A stretch of 64,000 bases of DNA from Glycera tridactyla (taxonomy: Eukaryota), in assembly GCA_965644265.1 (NCBI GenBank), contig OZ286476.1, positions 22,506,001 to 22,570,000 on the forward strand, written 5' to 3'. Below are positions 6,636 to 21,427 of this stretch, in pieces. The first letter of the stretch is position 1; every line of letters begins with the position of its first letter. The notes beneath the pieces are model-generated. The model was not told the DNA's origin. It saw only the letters and a list, made by a program, of their open reading frames with translations, and searched no databases. A program made the position numbers and the translations under genes.

Positions 6636-6830
6636 CAGTCAGTCAGTCAGTCAGTCAGTCAGTCAGTCAGTCAGTCACCCTCCTCTGCCGCCGAGCCCGC
6701 CCTCTGGGCGGGCTCGTCGGGTGTCATAATTACCGAAGCGAACGTAGACGAAGTCGGCCGACGGGGATTCGAAGTTCCTGGGTCAGTCAGTCAGTCAGTC
6801 AGTCAGTCAGTCAGTCAGTCAGTCAGTCAG
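6636..6830. repeat. (CAGT)n microsatellite split by a 106 bp GC-rich inverted copy of about 10383-10500
   Basis: 6636-6676 and 6784-6830 are CAGT runs. The reverse complement of 6677-6782 matches CCCAGGAACTTCGAATCCC...GGTAATTATGA...GGGCGGGCTC near 10383-10500. Confidence 0.9.
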
Positions 6831-8040
6831 CTCCAATGCAAGACCGCTTTCTGCTTGATATCTGTATGTAAAACAAGCTGGTGAATCCGCTGGTCGAGTC
6901 GGATTCGCGATAAAACTGCCGGTTTCTTCACAAATAGTTTTTTGAATAGGTGAATAAATACCTCTCTAACTGAGACCACCTCCGATGCGAGACCGCTTCA
7001 TATCTATACCTAAAACAAGATGATGGGCACGCTGGTCGAGCCGGATTCGTGATAGAACTGACAGTTTTCTTCACAAATTGTCATTCGAACATGTGAATAA
7101 ATACCTTGCTGAGTGAGACAACCTCCAATGCGAGACCGCTTTTGGCCTCATATCTATACATAAAACAAGATGATGAACACGTTTATTGGATGGGATTTGT
7201 GATAGAACTGATGTGAATAAATACCTCTCGAGACCACCTCCAATGCGAGACCGCTTTTGCCTTCATATCTATACATACGGTCCAGCCAGATTTGTGATAG
7301 AACTAACGGTTTCTTCACAAAGTGAGCATTCGAAGATGTGAATAAATACCTTCCATGAGTGACCACCTCTGTTGCGAGACCGCTTTTAACTTCATATTCA
7401 TACGTAAAACAAGATGGTGAATACGCTGCTCATGTCGGATTCGTGATAGAACTGATGTGAATAAATACCTCTCTCAGTGAGACCACCTCCAATGCGAGAC
7501 CGCTTCTAGCTTCATATCTATATGTAAAACAAGATGATGAGCATGCTGGTCGAGCCGAATTCCTGATAGAACTGACGGTTTCTTCACAAATAGTCATTCG
7601 AACATGTGAATAAATACCTGTCTGTATGAGACCACCTCCAATGCGAGACCGCTTTTGGCTTCATATCTATACGTAAATCAAGATAATGAACACGATTATT
7701 GAGCCGGATTTGTGATGGAAATGATGGTTTCTTCACAAATAGCTGTCAAAGTGAGCCCTCGAGATGTATCATGTTTGTGTATCTACTCGAGCTGTGACGA
7801 AAATAACCGAGTGTACCCGAACCTGCGCCCGGCTTAATATAGTCAAATATGTGAATAAATACCTCTCGAGACCACCTCCAATGTGAGACCACTCTGGCGA
7901 ATATAGTCGTCAAACTTCATATCTATACGTAAATTAGGATGGTGAATACGCTGGTCAAGTCGGATTTGTGATAGAACTGACAGTCTCTTCATAAATAGTC
8001 GCCAAAGTGAGCATACAATAGGAATGTGTATCTGCTCGAG
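6831..8040 (+). repeat. Left arm of tandem array, ~8 units of 115-145 bp with core GAGACCACCTCCAATGCGAGACCGC
   Basis: Cores near 6832, 6972, 7114, 7230, 7360, 7480, 7628 and 7868; shared GTGATAGAACTGA and TGTGAATAAATACC. Confidence 0.9.
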
Positions 8041-8189
8041 TCCACAGAGTTAGATGAGGGGAGGGGGGTTGCTGGTGGGGTGTAGCGCTGACCCTAATCT
8101 GAGGGAGCCTACCAGCCGCATATTTGACTTTATCTAGCCTACTTATTCTAGCCAAGCACAGGTTCGGATCCACTCGGATATTTCCGTCA

Positions 8190-10190
8190 AGACAGGAGTA
8201 GATACACATTCCTATCGAATGCTCACTTTGGGGACTATTCATGAAAAAACCGTTAGTTCTATCACAAATCCGACCCCATCAGCGTGTTCATCGTCTTGTT
8301 CTACGTATAGACATGAAGTTTGAAGACTATGATCGTTAAAGCGGTTTCACATTGGAGGTGGTCCCGAGAGGTATTTATACGTATATTTGACTGTATCTAG
8401 CCGAATGCAAGATCGGCTACACTCGACTATTTCAGGCCGAGTGTAGGTTCGGATTCATTCGGCTATCTCCGTCACGGCATGAGTAGATACACACTCCTAT
8501 CGAATGCTCACTTTGGAGACTATTTTTGAAGAAACCGTTAGTTCTATCACAAATCCGACCCCATCAGCGTGTTTATCGTCTTGTTTTACGTATAGACACG
8601 AAGTTTGAAGACTATGATCGTTAAAGCGGTCTCACATTGGAGGTGGTCTCGAGAGGTATTTATACGTATATTTGACTGTATCTAGCCTACTTATTCTAGC
8701 CGAGCACAGGTTCGGATTCACTCAGCTATCTCCGTCACGGCACGAGTAGATATACATTCCTATCGAATACTGACTTTGATGACAATTTGTGAAGAAACCG
8801 TTAGTTCTATCACAAATCCGACTCCATCAGCGTGTTTATCGTCTTGTTTTACGTATAGACTTGAAGGGGTCTCGCATTGGAGGTGGTCTCACACAGAGAG
8901 GTATTCATTCACATCAGTTATATCACAAATCCGGCTCGACCAGCGTATTCCCCGCCTTGTTTTACGTATAGATATGAAGTCAAAAGCGGTCTCGCATTGG
9001 AGGTGATCTCACCGAGAGAGGTATTTATTCACATCTTCGAATGACTATTTGTGAAGGAACCGTTAGTTCTATCACAAATCCGGCTCGATCAGCATGTTCC
9101 CCATCTTGTTCTATGTATAGNNNNNNNNNNNNNNNNNNNNNNNNNNNNNNNNNNNNNNNNNNNNNNNNNNNNNNNNNNNNNNNNNNNNNNNNNNNNNNNN
9201 NNNNNNNNNNNNNNNNNNNNNNNNNNNNNNNNNNNNNNNNNNNNNNNNNNNNNNNNNNNNNNNNNNNNNNNNNNNNNNNNNNNNNNNNNNNNNNNNNNNN
9301 NNNNNNNNNNNNNNNNNNNNNNNNNNNNNNNNNNNNNNNNNNNNNNNNNNNNNNNNNNNNNNNNNNNNNNNNNNNNNNNNNNNNNNNNNNNNNNNNNNNN
9401 NNNNNNNNNNNNNNNNNNNNNNNNNNNNNNNNNNNNNNNNNNNNNTCTTGTTTTACCTATTGATATGAAACGGTCTCGCATCGGAGGTGGTCTCACTGAG
9501 AGGTATTTATTCACATCTTCGAATGACTATTTGTGAAGAAACCGTTAGTTCTATCACGAATTCGAGTCGATCAGCGTGTTCATCATCTTGTTTTACATAT
9601 AGATATGAAGGCAAAAGCGGTCTCACATTGGAGGTGATCTCACTTGGAAGGTATTTATCAAGAAACCATCAGTTATATCACAAATCCGACTCGAGCAGCA
9701 TGCTCACCATCTTGTTTTACATATAGATATGAAGGCAAAAGCGGTCTCACATTGGAGGTGATCTCACTCAGCGAGGTATTTATTCACATGTTCAAATGAC
9801 TATTTGTGAAGAAACCATCAGTTCTATCACGAATCCGACTGGACCAGCGGATTCACCAGCTTGTTTTACATACAGATATCATGCCAGAAGCGGTCTCACA
9901 TCCGAGGTGGTCTCAGTTAGAGAGGTATTTATTCACATGTTCAAATGACTATTTGTGAAGAAACCGTCAGTTCTCTTGCGAATCCGAGTGCAGCAGCGTG
10001 TTCATCGTCTTGTCCTACGTATAGATATGAAGCCAAAAGCGGTCTCAAATTGGAGGTGGTCTCACTCTGACAGGTATTTATTTGTATATTCTATCGCAAA
10101 TCCGATTCAAGCAGCATGCTCATTATCTTGTTTAACATATAGATATGATGCGGTCTCACACCGGAGGTGGTCTTACTCAGCGAGGTATGT
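8190..10190 (-). repeat. Right arm of the same array in inverted orientation, at least 10 units, with an N gap at 9121-9445
   Basis: Core reads GCGGTCTCRCATTGGAGGTGGTCTC near 8340, 8626, 8868, 8987, 9471, 9620, 9741, 9890, 10040 and 10149. Confidence 0.9.
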
Positions 10191-10298
10191 TTGACTGGCT
10201 GGCTGGGAGAGGTATGCCTGACTGCTTGTTTGTGTCACGCTCCAATTCCCAGGGGGACTTGCCACCAGACCTCTCTCATTCACCCTCAGTCAGTCAAC

Positions 10299-10446
10299 AT
10301 GGGAGCCTGCACGATCACCCTCTGGTGCTTCTGCTACCACCTCATCCAGGGCAAGATCATGAGCTGTCCGGACTTCCCGCCGCCCAGGAACTTCGAATCC
10401 CTGTCGGCCGACTTCATCTTCGTCCGCGGGACGCCCTTCTCCTTCG
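10299..10446 (+). CDS. Candidate first coding exon (signal-peptide-like MGACTITLWCFCYHLIQG...) of the antisense membrane-protein gene, or a stand-alone 98 aa ORF 10299..10595
   Basis: ATG at 10299; strongly C/G-ending codons up to a phase-1 donor TTCG|GTAATT at 10446/10447, after which the composition changes. Confidence 0.35.
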
Positions 10447-10663
10447 GTAATTATGAAACCCGACGATCCCGCCTGGAGGGCGGGCTCAGCGGGCAAGGCG
10501 GGCGGCGGGCAGGCCGGCGCTCCCCCACCCCCCCTCCAGAGAAAACAAATGCAAAACACAAACGAGTATATGCGGATTTCATCAATTTTTTTTAATTTCT
10601 TGCGTAAATACATAGAATATCGCGTTTACATATCGATTATAGTCAAAGCGTAAATAGTGTCCG

Positions 10664-12010
10664 TTACGATGCCGGAAACACGTTTCTGCCTTCGTCGATC
10701 GACATGACGGCCGGAAACATGGCGTACAGAACGAGGACGATGCTTTCGGTCAGGTTCGAAGCGAAGCGCAGGGTCAATCGCGTGGTGCCCATCTGGCGTT
10801 GCTGCGTGAACTCGTTCTGGAGCATGTGGGGCATGATGTCGAAGACGATGAAGCAATAGCCGTTCTTGTACTCCTCTCTCCCGATCATCGGAAATTGCCC
10901 GGTTTGCTCGTTTTTTGCGTGAGCCAGCGTCGAATAGGCTTCCAGATATCGGTCGTTTTCGAAATCCGTGTTGATCGGTCTGTTCGGCACGCTCTGTCCG
11001 TTCACCTCGAAAGAAATGGACGACAGCTTGAAATGCTTGAACACGAACGGGTTCTTGTTGTAGGCGCCATTGAAGTTCGCTTGGGGTACCATGCCCACGA
11101 TCAATCTCGTCGGCGTCCTGCCGTTGAACGGGTTGTCGTACTGGTCGCCGCTGGTTCCGTCTTTGATGATCCACGTCTTGGTATCGCATCTCGTGTAGGG
11201 ATACATGGCGGGTCTGACCGCGAGCGCTTCGCCGTGCGCCAGAAATACGGAGGGCGAAACGTTCAGCATGGGCACCCTGACGAAGGTGTTGGTGATCTCG
11301 ACCTTGTAGTTCCCGGTCGCGCTACTGCAGATCAGTCTGAAGGCGTCCGTGCTCTGGCGGAACTTCAGTTGGAGTTGACACGCGTTCAACAGATACCGTC
11401 CGCACTTGAAGAGGTCCAGGTGGATGCGACCGATCAGCTCGATTTCCGTCGACTCGCTCGTCCTCTCGGCTCGTTTGGCCAGCTTGAGATTGACATTGGT
11501 TGCGGCCGCGAGCTGTGCCGCGGTCCGTTTCGGAACGGCGTCGTCCAACGTTCCGGCCTCCTCCTTGTCGAACATGCCCATGCTCAGCGGCGCGATCGTT
11601 TCCGATTCGTTGGCGTTCAGTAGAATGTCCATCATGGACTTGTCGGGATAATTCGACTGACATTCCACCATCTTTTGCGAAATGTAGCATTCGACAGCAC
11701 CGAAGAAGGACAAGATCGGCATGTTCGCCAGTGCCACCCCGTCCGTCGATGCGAGATCGCCACCGTCGCTCTTGACGATCTTGACCTTCAGATGCAGGTT
11801 CATGCGTTCCAAATCGATGTACATGCGCTGGTTTCCCGTGATGCTGAACTCCAGCGGCGAATAGCTGTTTATGGCCGCCACTGGACCGTAGTCGACGTGA
11901 TTGCGCGACTCGATGGAGACCTCTCGCGGCGGGAGGTTGAACAGTGCCATGGACGACACGTATCCCCAACCTCGGTCCGTGGAGTCGGGCGGGCTCTCGG
12001 ACGTGTCCAT
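10664..12010 (-). CDS. Major capsid protein (double jelly-roll, hexon-like/PY), intact 448 aa
   Basis: Polinton MCP-type N-terminus (ALFNLPPREVSIE...Y.P...I...SPLEFSI.G...YIDL); C-terminal NG..VP..P, GYCFIVFD and G..RL.LRFA motifs. Confidence 0.92.
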   Translation of the reverse strand: MDTSESPPDSTDRGWGYVSSMALFNLPPREVSIESRNHVDYGPVAAINSYSPLEFSITGNQRMYIDLERMNLHLKVKIVKSDGGDLASTDGVALANMPILSFFGAVECYISQKMVECQSNYPDKSMMDILLNANESETIAPLSMGMFDKEEAGTLDDAVPKRTAAQLAAATNVNLKLAKRAERTSESTEIELIGRIHLDLFKCGRYLLNACQLQLKFRQSTDAFRLICSSATGNYKVEITNTFVRVPMLNVSPSVFLAHGEALAVRPAMYPYTRCDTKTWIIKDGTSGDQYDNPFNGRTPTRLIVGMVPQANFNGAYNKNPFVFKHFKLSSISFEVNGQSVPNRPINTDFENDRYLEAYSTLAHAKNEQTGQFPMIGREEYKNGYCFIVFDIMPHMLQNEFTQQRQMGTTRLTLRFASNLTESIVLVLYAMFPAVMSIDEGRNVFPAS

Positions 12011-12020
12011 GATTTTTTTT

Positions 12021-12311
12021 CTAAAATGCTATTCGTAGCGAGCCTTTTTTCGACGAACGTTTGACTGCAGTTTGGGGTCTCTTCGCGCGCTTCTTATGCC
12101 TTTTGTCGGACGACGGTCGTTTCACCCCCAATAGCGATTGCGATTGTTCCACCGCGGCTTGAGCGGGAGATATGGCGACCAGCGATTTCGCCGTCGTCGT
12201 CGTGGGTTTTACCGGTTTGCTCTCGCGAAGAAGCTTGAAGGACTTGGTGTAGGGTACCCGGCCGCGAGCCATTTGCACAAAGTGTTCCTTGACCTTCGCG
12301 TGCTCAGCCAT
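12021..12311 (-). CDS. Small basic core-like protein between penton and MCP
   Basis: 96 aa, K/R-rich C-terminus, ISPAQAAVEQ motif recalled from similarly placed Polinton ORFs. Confidence 0.65.
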   Translation of the reverse strand: MAEHAKVKEHFVQMARGRVPYTKSFKLLRESKPVKPTTTTAKSLVAISPAQAAVEQSQSLLGVKRPSSDKRHKKRAKRPQTAVKRSSKKGSLRIAF

Positions 12312-12774
12312 CCTTCTTCAGAATCAGTTTCAGATAGCAGAAATGTCGAATGCACGGCGAGTCCGAGTGCGTGGGGCGATCGAGATCCCGGTTGATGAAC
12401 CGCACTTTGATACGATCCACGTAATTCTTCACGACTCTGACGTAATGATCTTCGGGAAAGTCGATTTGTTAGTTCTCATAGACTTTGCTCGTGGATCTCA
12501 TCGGAAGATCGCTCGGTATCAGGAGGGTGAGCAGCGGGAGTTGCGCGTTTCCAACCTGCGTCTCTTCTATAAAGTCGCACAGCACCAGTAGCGGTAATCG
12601 GAGGCTCTTGACGGACTTGTTTGCCGGAAACATGTACGAGAAGTACGCGCTGGCGATTCGACATTTCCAGCCGCCGTCCAAAAACGAAGGTTGCGGTAAG
12701 ACGTACGTAAACTCAGACAGGTCGTCTCCGTCGTCACTCCCGGAAATACCCGGTACAATCACAATCTGATCCAT
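12304..12774 (-). pseudogene. Minor capsid protein (penton/PX-like), one in-frame TAA at 12469-12471
   Basis: FTYVLPQP..LDGGWKC, LLVLCDFIEETQVGNAQLPLL. The frame continues past the TAA as QIDFPEDHYVRVVKNYVDRIKVRFINRD...LILKKDG* (TGA 12304-12306). Confidence 0.8.
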
Positions 12775-12918
12775 GGGCTAGTGCGTGTTCCAGTCTTTTG
12801 ACTCTGGCGCGAAAGCGGATGGAATCGAGAAGCTGCGAGCTAATGTCTCTCGCGTCTCTAGCCTCGTGCGGGTACTCTTCCAGATATCTGAATTCGACGA
12901 AATGATCGAAAGCCACTT

Positions 12919-14058
12919 TCAACTGTGTGGAACGTGCGTGACCTCCTTCGCGTCTATCCATGAGTTGAACTTGTTGTGGAAGCCTTTCCACTTGACGTAC
13001 ACCTGTTCCCTTCCATCCAGCACGCGTCTCTTGACGATCTTTTCTATGTCGTACAGTTGATCCGCGTCGGCCGTGTCGCGCACTGCCTGTAGTTCGCTTT
13101 CGTAGAAACTACCTTGCAACCGCTCGCCGTCTTGATCTCTTATGAAGTACACGGGCATGTCTTGCCTCTTTATGACCGAGTCTACGTAGTAGATCTCTCT
13201 GGTCCATCTCTCCGCGTACTCTCCGTACATTTTCTCGCGTCTTTTGGTAATTCTCACCGATTGACCTACACCGTATCTCGGCTTCTTGTTGACTTAGCTC
13301 GCATAATTCCTGGGCTTCCGCTTTTGACGACTGACGTATTGTGCGTATCTGACTTCGTGTTCGTTGTCGGCGTTCACTTCGTTCGGCGTACATCCGATGG
13401 AGCTGTGATAGGTGTCGTTGTATCCTCGAACAAAATCCTGTAGCTTGTCTATGTAACGCTCTGTGCGGTTCTCGTTCATGTATTTTTTAATGCGCTTCTT
13501 GAGCGATCTCCACACTCTTTCGATGAATGCGCATTGCGCCGTGCCGTGAGAGAAATAGTGACCCATGTCGTTTGTTTCTAGGTATTGCAAAAACTTGCTG
13601 TTGGTGAACTCGCTGCCCATGTCTGTCCTCAGACTGTTGCATTTTGCTCCCGCCTCTCGTAACACCGACTCAAACGCTTCTATCACGTTGTCACCGGTCT
13701 TTGTTTGGAGCGGTCTCACATACAGCTTTCTACTGAATATGCAAATGACACCCAACAGGTATCCGGTGTTGGAATTACGTTTTCGCAACTTCTGGTAATC
13801 GCACAGATCCGCTTCCCATATGTCGTTTATCCCGTTGGAAATGACGTTCGACTTTGGGAACTTGAACCGCGCCTCCTTGTTCAGCATATAACTATCCCGG
13901 GTCTGTAACCACCTTTTCACGTCGCTCAGCGTGATCTTGAACCTGGTGTTTTTTCTCACGGCCTTGTACACCTTGTCCGGCGATTGGAAACTACCGGCAG
14001 AGCGCGGATCTGTATAGTGTCTTTTGAGATAATCTTCGCCCTTTTTCGTTAGGACCAT
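12919..14058 (-). pseudogene. int: Retroviral-like (rve) integrase with C-terminal chromodomain, one in-frame TAA at 13294-13296
   Basis: DDE: WEADLCD, LRTDMGSEF, FIERVWRSLK. The frame continues RNYAS*VNKKPRYGVGQSVRI...WTREIY, then the chromodomain YDIEKIVKRR...YVKWKGF...NSWI. Confidence 0.93.
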
Positions 14059-14060
14059 CG

Positions 14061-14546
14061 TTACGATTTATTCTTGTTGAATTTTGGCGTAGGTAGCATT
14101 TGGCCGTACGAAACGCCCAGCATCAAAATCCAAACCTGTCTGTTCTGCGCGTTCAGACTGAGTAACACAATGCTGCACACCACTGTTATTATCGCCAGCA
14201 GGGACTGCGTGTAAAATATCTCCCTCGACTGGTTTGTTCTCTTATGAATTATGGGATCGAAAATTATTCCCCTGGGGTTGACTGAGCCGTTTACCGACGT
14301 GTTTTCGGCCGACGTCTTCTCCTGTTGCGTTTTTTTAATTCTGGGACAGGGTAGCATCAGTCCTATTCCGGTAGAAAGATATATGATCCACACCTGATCC
14401 TCGTCGTGTCCGATCGCGATGTTGATTATGCTAGCAATCACCACCAGAAATATCATGGACGCCTGTATGTAAAACACCTCTCTCACTAACACGTTCCGAC
14501 GGATCCACGATCTATCGACATCTTGCTCTTCGGTGGATTCCATCAT
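14061..14546 (-). CDS. Predicted four-TM membrane protein made of two similar halves
   Basis: EVFYIQ...VWIIYLSTGIGLMLPCP and EIFYTQ...VWILMLGVSYGQMLPTP, each with two hydrophobic segments. First ATG at 14546. Confidence 0.75.
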   Translation of the reverse strand: MMESTEEQDVDRSWIRRNVLVREVFYIQASMIFLVVIASIINIAIGHDEDQVWIIYLSTGIGLMLPCPRIKKTQQEKTSAENTSVNGSVNPRGIIFDPIIHKRTNQSREIFYTQSLLAIITVVCSIVLLSLNAQNRQVWILMLGVSYGQMLPTPKFNKNKS

Positions 14547-15106
14547 CACTCGTTGCTACCTTTATGCAAACAAGATACACTTATGCGTTCCTGCAGGGAT
14601 TCTAGAGCGCGGACAACGCTGATCTGACTCTTCTCGTTGTGTTTCATCCCCGTGATGATGACGACGCCCGACGAGTGTATCAAGAACTTTATTCGTTTAC
14701 CGACCCTCCAAATGAGCGCGTTGAATATCTCCGGTTCGTAAGTTGCGTTCTTCAAATTCAAGCGACGCAGGTCCGGCAGTGGAGTTAACCTGACAGTTGC
14801 CGATATCGTGTTGATCTTGATCCTCTCTAGACGGGGACTCAGACCTTTTCTCTGCAATAGTCTGGCGTATTGTCGAACTTTCTTCTTAGCCAGTTCGACG
14901 GAATTTGCTCCGTGTACCGATATATAACCATTACGGAAAATGAGAGCGGTCGATTTGATCCGTTTGTGACGCCAGACGATGTTACTCATCTTGGGATTGA
15001 CGACGATTCTGGAACAGTTGCGATACATCCAATCAGAGTCTATTGACGTGTTCAAATTTGCGCTGGCAACGACATTAGTTATGCAAATGTCTACATTCTG
15101 ATCCAT
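14546..15106 (-). CDS. Divergent TATA-box-binding protein (TBP)-like protein, intact 186 aa
   Basis: Both TBP repeats align by eye: ITNVVASANL, NPK, TALIFRNG..SVHGANS, KKVRQYARLLQRKG, KINTISAT, YEPEIFNALIWR, FLIHSSGVVIITG. Confidence 0.88.
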   Translation of the reverse strand: MDQNVDICITNVVASANLNTSIDSDWMYRNCSRIVVNPKMSNIVWRHKRIKSTALIFRNGYISVHGANSVELAKKKVRQYARLLQRKGLSPRLERIKINTISATVRLTPLPDLRRLNLKNATYEPEIFNALIWRVGKRIKFLIHSSGVVIITGMKHNEKSQISVVRALESLQERISVSCLHKGSNE

Positions 15107-15675
15107 CTCTGTTCTAGTAGCTTTCTCTGTTCGTCGATGCTCTGGCGGACTTTCTTCAAGTCGAGCTTTGTCGGTTTTACCCGTTTTCTCGGTACGACCT
15201 CGTCCTCTACTACGATAGATGGCAACTTCTTTCCTTTCTTCGTTCGCTCTTCCAATCGTTTAACTGTCCTTTTTCGTTTCCTGTTTGTAGGTGCACTGCC
15301 AGACGACTCCACCACGTCCCGTCCGACTGTCGAGGAGGTGCGGGATGATTCAACGAGTGCTGCCTCGGATGGTACAACCGGCACTTCGACTGTCGGGATA
15401 GATGCCGCAACGATCGCACTATCTGACGAATTGACTAGTCCATCAACGTCAACAGCAGTTTTATCGACGGATGCATCGACCGCGGTCCGTCAAGCGACAT
15501 CATCCGGAGCGAAGACTGACGACGCCTCGACCGTGGACCGTTGAGCGATGTCGACTGCAGTTTTGTTGGCGGAATCTACCGCAGTCGACGGTTCCACCAC
15601 CAACATATCCGACGAAGATCCTTCTAGACGCGACTTGGGTAAGATGATATATTCCCTCACTTCCTTCGATGCCAT
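15091..15675 (-). pseudogene. Polinton ORF of unknown function (S/T/D-rich middle, K/R-rich C-terminus), one in-frame TGA at 15490-15492
   Basis: ORFs 15490..15675 and 15091..15384 share a frame and are joined by open codons (DVA*RTAVDASVDK...TVEVPVV). It overlaps both neighbours. Confidence 0.65.
15291..15638 (+). other. Candidate Ser/Thr-rich (mucin-like) exon, phase 1-1, with internal TGA at 15542-15544
   Basis: Acceptor TTTTCGTTTCCTGTTTGTAG|, donor TTGG|GTAAGA; 348 nt. The pyrimidine tract could instead reflect Lys/Arg codons on the opposite strand. Confidence 0.3.
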
Positions 15676-15995
15676 ATAAGTCTCTTGGCCGATCTGTACA
15701 ACAACAACAGTATGTCGTGAATGCTGTCCTGATTATCGATCAATAAGGCCTTTTTCTTCTTCAACGACGTCCTCCGCGATGCAAGCACTCGAACCAGCGG
15801 TTTCAAATCCACCAGCGATTTCTTTGTGGAATCCGACAGCGGAAGAATGCCATACAACGCGTTGTGCGCGAGTTCGGATATCGCTTTGATCTGCTTGTTG
15901 GATATGGATTGAAGAAGCTTGTTTCTGACCCAGGCTCTCCTCCCGGCCAGTACTAACATGGAAATGAATGGTCCAGACTCTCTTATGAGCTCCAT
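15657..15995 (-). CDS. Conserved small Polinton protein (PW-like; probably the family labelled GasderminX in adintoviruses)
   Basis: LL...S.KQIKAISELAHNALYGILPL.....K.L...K..VRVL....TSLKKKK.LL pattern, located next to the ATPase. Family name is from memory. Confidence 0.65.
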   Translation of the reverse strand: MELIRESGPFISMLVLAGRRAWVRNKLLQSISNKQIKAISELAHNALYGILPLSDSTKKSLVDLKPLVRVLASRRTSLKKKKALLIDNQDSIHDILLLLYRSAKRLIWHRRK

Positions 15996-16029
15996 ATCCG
16001 ACTACTTTTTCGCAATTCACACGCGTCAC

Positions 16030-16740
16030 TTATGAATAGAATGTACACGTTTCACCCGGAAATATGTCTGTTCTCAAACGCAGATAGTTTGGCATGTTCA
16101 CGGTCATGTCCACAACCAGATATCCGTACCGTCTGTCGATTACGGATTTCTCGTAAGCCTTTGGGAGCAAGAGCTTATTTGTTGGGAACCGCTGTCTTCC
16201 AAAAACCTTGATCTGATCAGATGCGGCTGGTGTTTCGAACAGGATCACGTATCCGGCATTCACTGCGATAGTCTTGCTGAATTTACCTTGCTGAAATAGA
16301 TTGTGGCTCACGAAAACCATGGAGCAACCGCTGTGGTGGCATCTGACTGTAAAGAAGTCCATCACGTCTGTCGAATCCACAATTTCTCTCATGAGATCGT
16401 CCAGTACGATTATCAAATGATGCGAGCTCGGATCACAGTGTTCCAAAATCTCGTCTTGAGATAGTAAACCCTGGTGAAAGATTACGCAATCTAACTCGTT
16501 ACGGATCTGGTCAAATAACGGTTGGTAATTTTTGTAACAATACAAGATGTGATGCGGTTTGTCGCTCTCAATTAAGAACTCCTTGTTTGTGAGAAATCTG
16601 TGAAGAAAACTGGTCTTTCCTGCACCAGATCTACCCACTAAGATATAACACTGGTTGAGTTTGAATTTGATGTATCCGTTCTCGCCGTCCAACGAAATCA
16701 AGTCAGACCACACGGGATCCAGTTGCTTGAGACGGCTCAT
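16030..16740 (-). CDS. A32/FtsK-like genome packaging ATPase, intact 236 aa
   Basis: Walker A GRSGAGKT, Walker B IIVLDDL, RCHH...VSHNLF, C-terminal YGYLVVD...LRTDIF. Confidence 0.95.
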   Translation of the reverse strand: MSRLKQLDPVWSDLISLDGENGYIKFKLNQCYILVGRSGAGKTSFLHRFLTNKEFLIESDKPHHILYCYKNYQPLFDQIRNELDCVIFHQGLLSQDEILEHCDPSSHHLIIVLDDLMREIVDSTDVMDFFTVRCHHSGCSMVFVSHNLFQQGKFSKTIAVNAGYVILFETPAASDQIKVFGRQRFPTNKLLLPKAYEKSVIDRRYGYLVVDMTVNMPNYLRLRTDIFPGETCTFYS

Positions 16741-17075
16741 ATCTTAATCGGCTCCCGCAATTGGTGGTTGTGTGCCGCGTAGAATATATCTGTCAACTCT
16801 TTGGCCTTTGATGGAAATTTGTCCATTAAGATCGAGGTTAACTCCCACAACACTTTGACTCTTCCCCAATTCCACTTCCCATCATCAAACATGTACCGCA
16901 AGATGGCCCTGTATTGATGTACGGAGGTAATATCTCTGCTTATGATGCCGATAGATTCCGTAATCCTGCGATCTAGCGATTCCAGTATAACATCCACTCT
17001 CTTATGACTTACAGACGAAGACGATGACGACTTGTTGCTCGAGACATCCATTCTGACGTCCTTGGTTGCGTTCAT
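16737..17075 (-). CDS. Small Bcl-2-like protein (BH1 motif)
   Basis: YRAILRYMFDDGKWNWGRVKVLWEL matches BH1 (F..V..ELF.DG..NWGRIV.L..F). No clear BH2 or C-terminal TM. Confidence 0.72.
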   Translation of the reverse strand: MNATKDVRMDVSSNKSSSSSSVSHKRVDVILESLDRRITESIGIISRDITSVHQYRAILRYMFDDGKWNWGRVKVLWELTSILMDKFPSKAKELTDIFYAAHNHQLREPIKI

Positions 17076-18875
17076 TGGAGTGTGCGGTTTAGCTGTTTAC
17101 GCGTATAAGAGACATCGAGGTGAGTCACTTATAACAAGGGAAAGACTACGAATATGTGTTGTAGCTGCAATAGATACCTACATGTGATATTTCTGATGCG
17201 GTTCTACTACTGTTCTGCAAAGTCCGGCTGTTTACGACTTGAAACACGTATATCTTTCACGTGGCGTAGTGTAATTCTACTATATATATATATATATATA
17301 TATACAGTCTGACTGGCCAAGTGTGATGGCGACACATATGATGTTAAACCAACGAATGACAAACAGCATATGTTGTAATTGTGTTTATTGGTGCCGATAC
17401 AGGTGTATACATATATATATGAATATAACAATTCAATGAATACATTGCAATATATATAATTCTACTAATACGGATGTAAGCATGTCTCGTCCTTGTTTCA
17501 GGTGTCATCCCTCTCAGGTTGCCGGTTGCGGTCGATATACCCATGATACCTGTGGATTCCGGGACGGCTATGAATTCAGGTGAGTAGAGCTCAATGAACG
17601 TGGTACAGTACAGTGTTCGCGTTGCCTACATACTAACTATATATGTAGTATATGATTAATATAGAGCTCACAATGTGCGGCATGAATAAATGCTACATTC
17701 ATCATTTACACTGTACAAGTTCGTACTAGGAGGATCATCGAGTTACGTGAACTAAGATTCCCGGGATATGAGATTACATGAACGTAATCTCTCTCACAAT
17801 GTCTATACCGTTATAGGATCCTGTAGTCAAGTTCAGATAGTTTAATTGTAGTTTATGATGAGGATCACGAGTAGTAAAGTTCATACTGCTCAATTGCAGT
17901 TCATGATGGGGATGACGAAGAGGAAGACGAGATTGACGACAGCACTATATTCACTGTTGTCAATGAGGAGACCATAGTCGAGGAAGGAGCACGGGGGAAT
18001 GTGGCGTCGACACCTTTGTTAAAAAGCATGCCCAGACCATCTGATGAAATCACTGTCATAGAATCGGGCAAACCTCGTGCCAAGATCAACCTTCGTGATG
18101 TCGAAAAAGCTCTCAGTAACCTCTCCATTGATGACACAGTATATCGTCCCGGCGAGGAAGCAACATCAGAAGTGCACGGCGTGATAGATGAGATGAATCT
18201 TGATAACACTGTCTACCACAAACTCCATGGAGATAAAGAAGACATCATCTTCCCCCGACGTGGCACCAGAGAACGTAGACCAGGTAATCACTCATTCTCT
18301 TGCACATCGATCTCGATCCCGATCTCTGTATTGAACTCATCCACGTGCATCTTCATCTCTGCAAATTCTTCTGTGTTCAGATGAATCCCCCTCAAACCTG
18401 GCTGCAATGTACCGTCTTTAGCCTCGTAGTATTCCCTTAGCTGTAGTAGCTTGTAATCATTGTTCATAGACACGTGCTGGTTCGAATCCAAAGCAAACTT
18501 GAACTCTTGTCGATTGCCTGCCATGATTTCGTCGACGGCTGCCTGGATGGTATCTAGCTTCTTGATGAACTCTTTCCATACCGGCTGAGCCATGGTGTAT
18601 CTTCGAATCCTCAAGTGGCTGCTCTTTCGTTGGAATGAAAACCTCGACATCACCACCATGGTTGATCTGGGAGTGTAGGCTATCATGGTCTCTGCTTCAT
18701 GGGCCACGCTCAGCACCATTCTGACTGTTCCACGTGCATCTGGAATTAATACTTTTGATTAGTAAGGTTGTAACAATATGGTATATACATTGTAAATGTG
18801 AGATTACGTGTCTCGAGTATGAATACAATACTATTACACAATGATCTGTTCTCATTTGCAGTTGATCGATACTGA
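17015..18875 (+). CDS. Spliced single-pass membrane protein, exons 17015-17119, 17502-17579, 17900-18283, 18862-18875 (5' exons uncertain)
   Basis: All junctions are canonical AG/GT and phase 1 (CTTACAG|, |GTGAGT, TTGTTTCAG|, |GTGAGT, ATTGCAG|, |GTAATC, ATTTGCAG|). The joined frame is open: DEDDDDLLLETS-ILTSLVAFIGVCGLAVYAY-KRHR, an acidic tail, ending RPVDRY*. Confidence 0.7.
18288..18719 (-). CDS. PC4/Sub1-like ssDNA-binding transcriptional coactivator domain protein
   Basis: LLQLREYYEAKDGTLQPGLRGIHLNTEEFAEM matches the PC4 pattern IDIREYW...G...PGRKGISL..EQW. A degenerate second copy is probable in the N-terminal half. Confidence 0.8.
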   Translation of the reverse strand: MVLSVAHEAETMIAYTPRSTMVVMSRFSFQRKSSHLRIRRYTMAQPVWKEFIKKLDTIQAAVDEIMAGNRQEFKFALDSNQHVSMNNDYKLLQLREYYEAKDGTLQPGLRGIHLNTEEFAEMKMHVDEFNTEIGIEIDVQENE

Positions 18876-19025
18876 CCGACATGAACTCCACACCCGGCAG
18901 TTCTATATCCATCTATGGGAGATCTTTCTGAAAATTTAGATCCTTGAACAGAGTCGTCCGAGTTGGATCTGGTATCCTCTTGATCTCTCGTAGCTGAATG
19001 GGACCTCTCCATTGTGCTAATCCTC

Positions 19026-19031
19026 AATAAA
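19026..19031 (+). terminator. AATAAA polyadenylation signal for the spliced plus-strand gene
   Basis: AATAAA lies 150 nt after the predicted stop at 18873-18875. Confidence 0.5.
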
Positions 19032-19263
19032 GAGTGACTATCAACTGCCTCCGACTCTCTTATATATTCACAAGTGGAGGCATACTATACTATCTCTTGT
19101 ATAATATATTGTGATGGTATAATCTATTGATTATATATTCTACACATATGTTCTATGTTTAGATTCTGTCTCCGAATATACACTGTATAATCTATGAATG
19201 GAAACCTTATATAATACCATATCAATATCCCGTGTACGTGAACTGCATACAGTTACTACTCAC

Positions 19264-20136
19264 CTAATTCTCTAATTGACACACGTCGAAGGACAGAAAG
19301 TAATGGAATTGTGCCAATATGTCAAATGTCCATAGCTCATTGTCTGCGGTGTAGAGCATGATCAACACATATTTGAGTACATCCTGGTAGCCTGTATGCG
19401 GTTGCTGGTGCCTCATGGCATTCAGAATTTTACGAAGGTGTGTGGGAGAGGCGACTCCATCGATCATTTTGTGAAAATCTGATGGGAGTTGGTAATCGTG
19501 TCCTTGAAAATAGGACTCATCGAAGTTGTTCTTGTTGATGTACACCGATAAAAAGTTGAAATAGGTGGCCAGCTCCTCTGTGGTTGGATAGCCTCTACTG
19601 CGACCAGATTCACAGATCTCAGACAGTCTTTGTGCATACAGCTGGTCAGTATCTTCACGCCTGAAAGGTATAATCATCTCAAGCACAGGTTCGACCACCT
19701 GAATGTTGAACATCCAGTTCAGTATGAAGTTAGTGAAAGTATGAATGATGGGGATGAATGCTCTTGGAGAAACACCCAGCAGCCTCTTGCAGATTATGAT
19801 CATCAGTAATATCTCCTTGGATGTGCAGCGGCCTTGATTGAACAGATCAAACAGGACCTCACTGAACATATCCCTCCCAGTAATCTTGGAACATACATGA
19901 TCCATGTATGCATTCACCTTCAGAGTGTAGGGATGTCTCCAATCAAAATGCCAGTATGACTCCTTCTCTTGATTTGCAATGCGATGAAAATATGCCATCA
20001 CTTCTTGCAGTGACCATTCTCGCTCTGATGATATATCAAAATGAGATGGTGCTGCAGCTGTTTCAAAATCCTGATATAGCTCAACCTCCTCAAACTGTTC
20101 TACCATCTGATCAACGGATGTCTCTAAAGTTGTCAT
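19264..20136 (-). CDS. Uncharacterised helical protein, paralog A (290 aa)
   Basis: Long intact ORF; colinear similarity to 20460..21311. Confidence 0.8.
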   Translation of the reverse strand: MTTLETSVDQMVEQFEEVELYQDFETAAAPSHFDISSEREWSLQEVMAYFHRIANQEKESYWHFDWRHPYTLKVNAYMDHVCSKITGRDMFSEVLFDLFNQGRCTSKEILLMIIICKRLLGVSPRAFIPIIHTFTNFILNWMFNIQVVEPVLEMIIPFRREDTDQLYAQRLSEICESGRSRGYPTTEELATYFNFLSVYINKNNFDESYFQGHDYQLPSDFHKMIDGVASPTHLRKILNAMRHQQPHTGYQDVLKYVLIMLYTADNELWTFDILAQFHYFLSFDVCQLEN

Positions 20137-20459
20137 GATGCTGAGGAGGATACTCTCTCAAATGAATAATATGTGAGATGTGACTGTATATATACTTTTG
20201 CAGATGTGAGAATATATATATTACCTTGAGTGACTATTCTCATGCTAGAGAACAAAACTGGCTAGTCTAGAGACAGATTGATAGTATACTCTCCCTCCAT
20301 AGAGCAAAGGTCGCTTGATATCTCATTGGCACAAAGTATGTGATAAACAAGTGTCACCTTCCGAAAAAGCACTCTAGATGTTTGTTAGTTCAACTACGAT
20401 GCCCGTGATGTACACCCGCCAGATGGTTCATTGGATCTACTTACTTGATAGGATACACA

Positions 20460-21311
20460 TCATACTTCCATTCTGCATACATCGACGGCTACGAATAAAT
20501 AGAATTGGAATAGATAATCGTAGTAGCATGATCCATATTCAGCAGCCTTCAACGTGATTAGTATGTATTTCAGTACTTCTTCATATCTCGTGTGGAATAC
20601 CTCTCTGTGCATAACATTCAGGATTTTACGAAGATGGAGGGGGGATTTTACTTGTTGTACCATTGTATGGAATGCACTGTGATATTGAAATTCATATCCC
20701 TGTAAGCAGTTCTCAGCAAAGGGTTCTCTGAGTATGTATACACACATCGTATTGAAATAACTGGCTAGGTCTTCTGTGGTCATATGCCCATTGAGATTGT
20801 ATGGTCTGATACATGAACGCATCACCTTTGAATAATTTTGGTCATTCAATTCACGGTTGTAGGTGATTGTCATGCAAGTTTCAGGATGTGTCATTTTGAT
20901 GTTTAACAACCAACCGGTTATGGTTTGTGTGAAAATGTTAACAATCCGTATCAATGCACGAGGAAACAACCAAGCCAATCTGCTGAATATCAAAACCATC
21001 ACCAATATGTCTGTGTGGCTGCAGCTGCCATCCTTCACCAAATCAATCATGATCTCAAACAGCATATCATTCCCCCTGATTTTGGTGCATACATAGTCGA
21101 AATATGTGTTCACAGTGTATGGGTCCAACTTATTCCAAATATATCTATGAAGAGTATCCTTATGTAGTGATGAGACCGCCATGAAATATGCACTCATATC
21201 CTTTATTTCCCATTCATCTCGGTCCTCTTCCAGAGACTCTTTCTCGGAATCCATCCTGCTTATTCGACTATTCGATTGTAAATGAGCTACACATTCCATA
21301 ACATCTTCCAC
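20460..21311 (-). CDS. Uncharacterised helical protein, paralog B (283 aa)
   Basis: Shared with paralog A: W....AYF, VC.KI.G.D, FPRA/SPRA, TTE.LA.YFN, SP.HLRKILN.M, VLKY.LI.L, F..DVC. Confidence 0.8.
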   Translation of the reverse strand: MEDVMECVAHLQSNSRISRMDSEKESLEEDRDEWEIKDMSAYFMAVSSLHKDTLHRYIWNKLDPYTVNTYFDYVCTKIRGNDMLFEIMIDLVKDGSCSHTDILVMVLIFSRLAWLFPRALIRIVNIFTQTITGWLLNIKMTHPETCMTITYNRELNDQNYSKVMRSCIRPYNLNGHMTTEDLASYFNTMCVYILREPFAENCLQGYEFQYHSAFHTMVQQVKSPLHLRKILNVMHREVFHTRYEEVLKYILITLKAAEYGSCYYDYLFQFYLFVAVDVCRMEV

Positions 21312-21427
21312 AATGCCATCTCATATACTATAGTCTAATATACATGTACACCATGGTAGATATATTCAGCTGCTGTCATAGTGCCCCGTTCCTGGTAGAT
21401 AGCTGTTATACAGCCCCTCTAACTACT

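Follow-up and report, generated by a model that had tools for sequence, protein, structure and literature searches.

A spliced membrane-protein gene interleaved antisense with the core genes of a Polinton-type element in Glycera tridactyla

Polintons or Mavericks (adintoviruses) carry terminal inverted repeats (TIRs), a protein-primed family B polymerase (pPolB), an rve integrase-chromodomain, an A32-like ATPase, a capsid gene and a Bcl-2-like accessory gene; the part of PMC8502044 considered here lists Bcl-2 homologs and membrane-active proteins and holds no match for 'splic'. Introns were not seen in the genes of intact vertebrate Mavericks (PMC8097293, excerpt), in agreement with the remark of an earlier sequence-only reading of the present DNA that introns lie outside the usual description of Polintons. 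Nematode Mavericks have core genes free of introns, host cargo genes with introns and a gB-like fusogen, MFUS-1 (10.1101/2022.07.12.499685, excerpt). Furthermore, excerpts of two other reports describe group I introns in protist elements (PMC12220804) and splice acceptors that precede the late genes of adomaviruses (10.1101/341131). The portions consulted of 10.1101/2024.03.25.586562, 10.1101/2023.08.22.554363, 10.1101/2025.02.07.637071 and 10.64898/2026.10.13.758929 hold nothing on a spliced Polinton membrane gene interleaved with other genes, and none was found in the portions of the literature searched, although Repbase annotations, supplements and the 2006-2007 descriptions may mention one.

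The locus analysed here lies in a stretch of 64,000 nucleotides (the window) of a 2.0 Gb host genome. That a spliced membrane-protein gene is interleaved antisense with Polinton genes in it, as the sequence-only reading had proposed, is borne out by joints in presumed RNA, by selection and by conservation in distant families. The element shares with Polintons the TIRs, pPolB, the integrase-chromodomain and, probably, the ATPase, capsid and Bcl-2-like genes, and differs from them in having two spliced genes, in the position of its core block inside introns and in the absence of a cysteine protease among the ORFs scanned. With nematode Mavericks (10.1101/2022.07.12.499685, excerpt) it shares element-borne genes with introns and an encoded single-pass membrane protein, but there the genes with introns are cargo taken from the host and located in a variable region apart from the core, whereas the gene described here (hereafter the hidden gene) is clade-wide, interleaved with the core and without a non-Polinton copy among 20 loci. 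MFUS-1, in turn, is large, resembles gB and has a signal peptide; the product of the hidden gene shows neither a fusogen fold nor a signal peptide. The protein family is uncharacterised, and a spliced interleaved gene in this known element type was not found in the searches made.

The main features of the element are the following, E2 and E3 being exons of the hidden gene listed further below.

about 400 bases before the window to 21427, about 21.8 kb: Polinton-type element with a 69-nt TIR at both ends
21359..21427: right TIR, 69 nt, 98.6% identical to the left one, which lies about 400 bases before the window
6676..10200, no strand: repeat field of ~150-nt units in both orientations, internal to the element
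15091..15675, minus strand: small core gene with acidic middle and basic C-terminus, overlapped by E2; in-frame stop at 15490-15492 in the window copy
16737..17051, minus strand: Bcl-2-like gene from its conserved ATG, overlapping E3 by 37 nt; Pfam Bcl-2 E 3e-4, below the curated cut-off

The TIR starts with AG as in Polintons and a target-site duplication is present, of 5 nt here and 6 nt in the sister copy C4. On the plus strand pPolB is found in three ORF pieces (PF03175, E 2e-24 and 3e-25), and the minus strand holds the genes for a probable capsid, the integrase-chromodomain, a small membrane protein, a TBP-like protein, the ATPase, the Bcl-2-like and PC4-like proteins and two paralogs of ~280 aa. 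The rve integrase (PF00665) and its C-terminal chromodomain (PF00385) were both detected, separated by an in-frame stop in the window copy, and the packaging ATPase gives only weak Pox_A32/AAA matches. A 448-aa minus-strand ORF has no Pfam match; from its position, size and conservation we take it to be the probable capsid gene. No Pfam match to an adenain-like cysteine protease was obtained among 21 ORFs scanned. The window copy is decayed, with frameshifts in the polymerase and in-frame stops in the integrase and the small core gene.

The sequence-only reading had described a gene of four exons with canonical AG/GT ends, all in phase 1, joined in one open frame and followed by AATAAA; these exons are real and were found as claimed, and their product indeed has an acidic stretch, a 19-aa helix (mean hydropathy 2.07), a KRHR motif and a tail of ~160 aa. 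Nevertheless, they are the 3' part of the gene only: position 17015 follows an acceptor and no in-frame ATG is present, so the gene must start further upstream, where two exons had been missed. The resulting model has six exons.

10299..10446, plus strand: E1, ATG and 49 codons, four-cysteine head, phase-1 donor; placed by homology (55% aa identity and a phase-1 donor in a distant family)
10447..15290, plus strand: intron 1, predicted; acceptor 15289-15290 used in run X1
15291..15638, plus strand: E2, Ser/Thr/Asp-rich stalk exon, 36% S+T, phase 1/1; joint 15638>17015 in X2 and X3
15639..17014, plus strand: intron 2; GT..AG joint seen in presumed RNA
17015..17119, plus strand: E3, acidic stretch, transmembrane helix and KRHR; 56% aa identity in the distant family; first exon of the sequence-only reading
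17502..17579, plus strand: E4, 26-codon tail exon; joints on both sides, a conserved island between diverged introns
17900..18283, plus strand: E5, 128-codon acidic tail exon with TVYxxL and a basic end; joints and purifying selection
18862..19031, plus strand: E6, last 4 codons and 3' UTR; joint 18283>18862, AATAAA at 19026-19031

All exons are in phase 1 and together encode 358 aa in 1077 nt. E1 sits just behind the 3' end of the capsid gene, and intron 1 contains the minus-strand genes for the probable major capsid, the integrase-chromodomain, the small membrane protein and the TBP-like protein, while intron 2 contains a minus-strand 112-aa ORF, the packaging ATPase and most of the Bcl-2-like gene. 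At the other end, the coding part of E6 (18862-18875, last codons VDRY*) lies inside the intron of the PC4-like gene and its 3' UTR is antisense to the first exon of that gene; AATAAA or ATTAAA is present at the gene end in most sisters.

Splicing was read from contigs of four runs of one study (X1-X4), presumed to be RNA and aligned on 10200-21427 at a depth of 2-9. The three junctions predicted by the sequence-only reading were all found at the expected bases as GT..AG joints, 17119>17502 in X1, 17579>17900 in X1 and X3, and 18283>18862 in X1 and X4, and an extra GT..AG joint, 15638>17015, was observed in X2 and X3. With one intron of the PC4-like gene, five introns are thus seen in presumed RNA, in an element type whose intact vertebrate members are characterised by intronless genes. 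The joints are assigned to the plus strand because their GT..AG ends read on that strand. A few letters set the contigs apart from the window, so they come from an allele or a sister copy; the only other near-identical locus in the genome search retains its introns, which argues against a processed DNA copy. The joint between E1 and E2 (10446>15291) was not observed in the contigs of the four runs. The sole contig entering E2 from upstream does so from repeat-field sequence ending at a donor-like site, with E1 skipped. Three contigs run across the E1 donor or come close to it without being spliced, those of X2 and X4 running across. No conserved coding exon was found upstream of E1, and we infer that E1 is the first coding exon, spliced to E2 across the capsid-integrase block.

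The second spliced gene is the PC4-like one, for which the following parts were delimited.

18877..19012, minus strand: exon 1, 45 codons, phase-1 donor; purifying selection in 3/3 comparisons (p <= 1.6e-5), joint in X1
18740..18876, minus strand: intron; X1 joint, same sites in a distant family
18288..18739, minus strand: exon 2, inside the last intron of the hidden gene; Pfam PC4 E 6.9e-8, dN/dS 0.07-0.14

The X1 joint runs from 18731 to 18877 with 8 sister-type letters in between, which fits this intron. The sequence-only reading had placed the PC4-like gene within the last intron of the hidden gene; this is right for the ORF 18288-18719, which belongs to exon 2, but the gene is spliced and its exon 1 overlaps the last exon of the hidden gene. 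The two genes are thus mutually nested, each having a coding part in an intron of the other. Similarly, the transmembrane exon had been said to overlap the N-terminus of the Bcl-2-like protein. The acidic stretch does overlap it, but the helix lies upstream of the start conserved among sisters, which is 17051 and not 17075.

E2 is antisense to the small core gene in such a way that third codon positions coincide; Val, Ser and Asp/Glu codons of one strand thus become Thr, Asp/Glu and Ser codons of the other. The E2 frame is open in 6/9 aligned near sisters and, among the nine exons examined, eight have no stop and the window copy has one, at 15542-15544; the same frame of the homologous core gene shows 2, 2 and 8 stops in three elements without interleaving. 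However, the antisense frame is also free of stops over 64 core-gene codons that are not overlapped (background 0.04 per codon), so that composition accounts in part for the openness of E2.

Near sister copies were compared; 13 related loci were fetched, nine of which aligned over the region of the hidden gene. Both splice sites of the membrane exon are kept in all nine, and each of the six splice sites of the sequence-only reading was found by motif search in 8-10 of the 13 loci, the misses in the alignment being mostly deletions. The introns can hardly be aligned: in the two sisters for which this was measured, gaps take up about half of the columns. The largest exon, E5, is under purifying selection: pS was 0.64-0.78 and pN 0.18-0.30 in five out of five sister comparisons (p <= 1.6e-9), with dN/dS of 0.11-0.17 in three of them and saturated synonymous sites in the other two. 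For the helix alone, of about 20 codons, selection is weak (w 0.24-0.54, p 0.02-0.25) and goes in the same direction, and E1 differs from one sister by 5 synonymous and 0 non-synonymous changes. All near copies examined are broken somewhere. The membrane exon is disrupted at its end in seven of the nine aligned sisters, by a stop in three and by small deletions in four, and the window copy cannot make the full protein because of the stop in E2.

Beyond the near sisters, a distant family with core proteins 55-80% identical has all six exons in the same places with phase-1 GT/AG sites in 2/2 copies, the identity to the window being 55% for E1, 56% for the membrane exon and 48% for the first half of E5. 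The head domain encoded by E1 gave 91 matches in the genome at E <= 1, 34 of them at E<0.001, and 20 of the 91 were fetched, chosen to span the ORF-length classes and not at random. All 20 start with Met and adjoin Polinton genes (in one case only a capsid fragment), and no non-Polinton copy of the head gene was met among them. Family C, whose polymerase is 35-47% identical, has the gene order of the window, and its E1 has a phase-1 donor at codon 56-62. The exons predicted to follow are S/T-rich ones, one of them antisense to the same core gene, then the one with the membrane helix, a short one and a long one for the tail. This family also has a further candidate for an S/T-rich exon, non-overlapping and at most about 500 codons long (L088+L099, L090+L101, L087+L105), and stalk length therefore varies widely. 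In family B the gene is not interleaved, the head and a stalk of 200-300 aa forming one ORF with a predicted membrane exon right behind it, which ties these parts to one protein. These distant gene models are predictions from sequence alone. With a fixed filter, a phase-1/1 membrane exon was found in 8/10 distant elements and in none on the opposite strand.

Outside this genome, a profile search gave 24 matches at E <= 0.001, and four long ones (P0015, P0017, P0020, P0024) were dropped as partial; in the other 20 the head is again found, with S/T-rich or acidic residues behind it, and of 10 that were looked up none bears a name. In metagenomes, 75 loci with a related capsid gene were collected (24 of at least 5 kb), four of which carry the head behind the capsid gene, and L144, which reaches far enough, has a phase-1/1 membrane exon behind the head. 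A head followed by a spliced membrane exon is thus also found in two more families and one metagenome contig. Scans of viral contigs gave no usable locus; no E5 homologue was found among 427 longer candidate proteins and no head homologue among 8000 candidates of a word-indexed search, both being weak negatives. We take the hidden gene to be real and ancient within this Polinton clade.

The head follows the motif C-x4-W-C-x-C-x10-C-P..PP...E.L.A...V.G, and its AlphaFold model (pLDDT 79.6) displays a beta-hairpin in a small beta domain. No significant fold match was obtained (best Foldseek E 5.4 against PDB and 1.2 against viral structures, best Z 3.3 in a wide search), which is not proof of a new fold, and nothing usable for head or tail was found in Pfam (19 head members), PHROGs, PDB sequences or the ESM Atlas. 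Two resemblances were considered and discarded. An LRRNT cap gave an HHalign probability of 1.3% against nine host LRRNT domains, no Pfam match in 19 members and three LRR-cap Foldseek rows at E about 9 that a second aligner did not keep; a gB-like class III fusogen fold of the Maverick kind is at odds with an ectodomain made of a 50-aa head and a low-complexity stalk, and gave no fold match. By hydropathy no cleavable signal peptide was detected. A conserved Met, 7-11 residues before the conserved Trp in 18/20 homologs, directly precedes the cysteine domain, which is polar in many of them, and in view of the polar homologs the idea of E1 itself as a signal peptide was abandoned. In all families there is a single helix with acidic residues before and basic residues after it, and a tail that ends in a basic run, the TVYxxL of the tail being kept in near and distant families. 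A strict R-x-K/R-R furin-type site follows the head in 5/20 homologs, a furin-type site is also present in the distant family, and the stalk of that family has N-x-S sequons. The charge asymmetry, the furin-type sites and the sequons point to an N-out, C-in topology. The predicted product is a protein of the cell surface in which a long stalk, likely coated with sugars, bears a small cysteine-rich head.

We consider it fairly probable that this product is a host-modulating surface protein of the infected cell, in the manner of the adenovirus E3 glycoproteins. Host splicing would join the exons across the core-gene block and yield a single-pass membrane protein of 358 aa, with four introns seen in presumed RNA and a fifth predicted. 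With no signal peptide, the helix would act as a reverse signal anchor; an N-terminal part of ~200 aa is long for such an anchor, and the unfolded stalk would let it be threaded into the ER. Once O-glycosylated, the stalk may hold the small disulfide-bonded head outside the cell and away from the membrane, where the head would bind a host surface molecule and, in some relatives, be released at the furin-type site, while the YxxL motif of the tail could sort the protein or dock a host adaptor. The gene is clustered with the Bcl-2-like and PC4-like genes. As to its origin, the core-gene block probably came to lie within the first intron, and an antisense frame of a core gene was probably then recruited as stalk exon. 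Adenovirus E3 proteins are made by splicing in a related virus lineage. E3/49K is reported to be a heavily glycosylated single-pass viral membrane protein that is shed and binds a host surface protein, much as proposed here for the hidden product; it is however of type I with a different head domain, whereas the hidden product lacks a signal peptide, and the likeness is one of architecture. Fractalkine, RSV G and GPIb-alpha also combine a small cysteine-rich head, an S/T-rich stalk, one helix and a cytoplasmic tail, again a likeness of architecture only.

The same gene and topology could alternatively serve a virion envelope, attachment or egress protein of membrane-wrapped Polintons, the head binding a receptor on the next cell and the basic end of the tail contacting capsids or targeting the nuclear membrane. 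The presence of the gene in every Polinton family sampled, its position next to the capsid gene in family B and four metagenome loci, the basic runs that end the tails in all families and a second, small two-lobed membrane protein in the element are consistent with this, and so is the fusogen predicted for a nematode Maverick, which spans the membrane once and has a signal peptide (10.1101/2022.07.12.499685, excerpt). The hidden product nevertheless shows no fusogen-like fold, only a 50-aa head on a low-complexity stalk. Moreover, double-jelly-roll Polinton capsids are usually taken as non-enveloped. We hold such a virion role to be unlikely, and rank host modulation above it because of the gene neighbourhood and the missing fusogen fold. 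A cytosolic metal-binding head is less probable still: the protein would then be an anchor of the ER or nuclear envelope with opposite or no surface exposure, as the missing signal peptide, the Met shortly before the Trp in 18/20 homologs and four near-invariant cysteines that could bind zinc would allow, but the charges flanking the helix in all families, the furin-type sites in 5/20 homologs and the sequons in the distant family's stalk argue against it.

Finally, the joints could stem from transcripts that read through a decayed element and were cryptically spliced by the host, yielding no useful protein. The depth is low, one isoform starts in the repeat field and none of the near copies examined is intact; nonetheless, E5 and E1 are under purifying selection and the phase-1 design is kept in families whose polymerases are 35-47% identical, which makes this explanation highly improbable. 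It is largely refuted for the gene family and may hold for the window copy with its stop in E2.

A conserved and selected spliced membrane protein, as favoured here for the surface of the infected cell, fits a virus that deals with cell surfaces rather than a purely intracellular transposon, and bears on whether animal Polintons are real infectious viruses. A bolder view, which we regard as possible and on balance doubtful, is that animal Polintons include an entire clade of viruses that are enveloped or spread from cell to cell, with an adenovirus-like programme of spliced transcription and an overlooked attachment glycoprotein with a new receptor-binding head; if the attachment reading were true, ORF-based annotation would have missed the gene throughout the clade. 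Polintons are annotated by listing ORFs with introns assumed absent, and the hidden gene implies that their gene inventories are incomplete. The profile of the 50-aa head is a concrete marker for such elements, and E2 is a clear example of antisense overprinting that can be compared with relatives lacking the overlap.

Several further observations were made on the element. The TBP-like gene (14546-15106, minus strand, Pfam E 4e-29) is also present in families A' and B and, with the PC4-like gene, suggests viral transcription factors. The small membrane protein (14061-14546, minus strand, 161 aa) consists of two similar halves and is kept in all families sampled. The two ~280-aa paralogs (19264-20136 and 20460-21299, minus strand) are 38% identical and present as one copy in the distant family; the N-terminal half of each can be loosely aligned with the Bcl-2-like ORF (19%), and they may be diverged Bcl-2-like proteins. 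A 200-aa ORF at 188-790 on the plus strand has a C2H2-like start, and its two homologous parts lie 1.6 kb apart in both copies of the distant family, the gap being perhaps another intron.

The repeat field (6676-10500) contains (CAGT)n runs, and at its borders lie a partial copy of the E1 end, in inverted orientation, and a hairpin with a 16-bp stem (6676-6783 vs 10385-10500). The field is found in all near sisters and absent from the distant family, and in our estimation it resembles Helentron-associated elements. A shuffled array of coding mini-exons was considered for the 150-nt repeats and found no support, unit lengths between splice-like sites being mostly not multiples of three, C7d having no such field and a single contig being concerned. 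The element itself lies inside a host block repeated in tandem (spacings ~25 and ~10 kb) with retrotransposon-like remnants (21428-64000 and upstream). In family C, minus-strand donor-like motifs just upstream of the head ATG (L084, L085, L087, L095, L097, L098) hint at further minus-strand splicing. Among families, the orientation of the core-gene block and its position relative to the head exon differ (L108+L092, L110+L081, L112+L082), and the block has therefore been inverted or moved.
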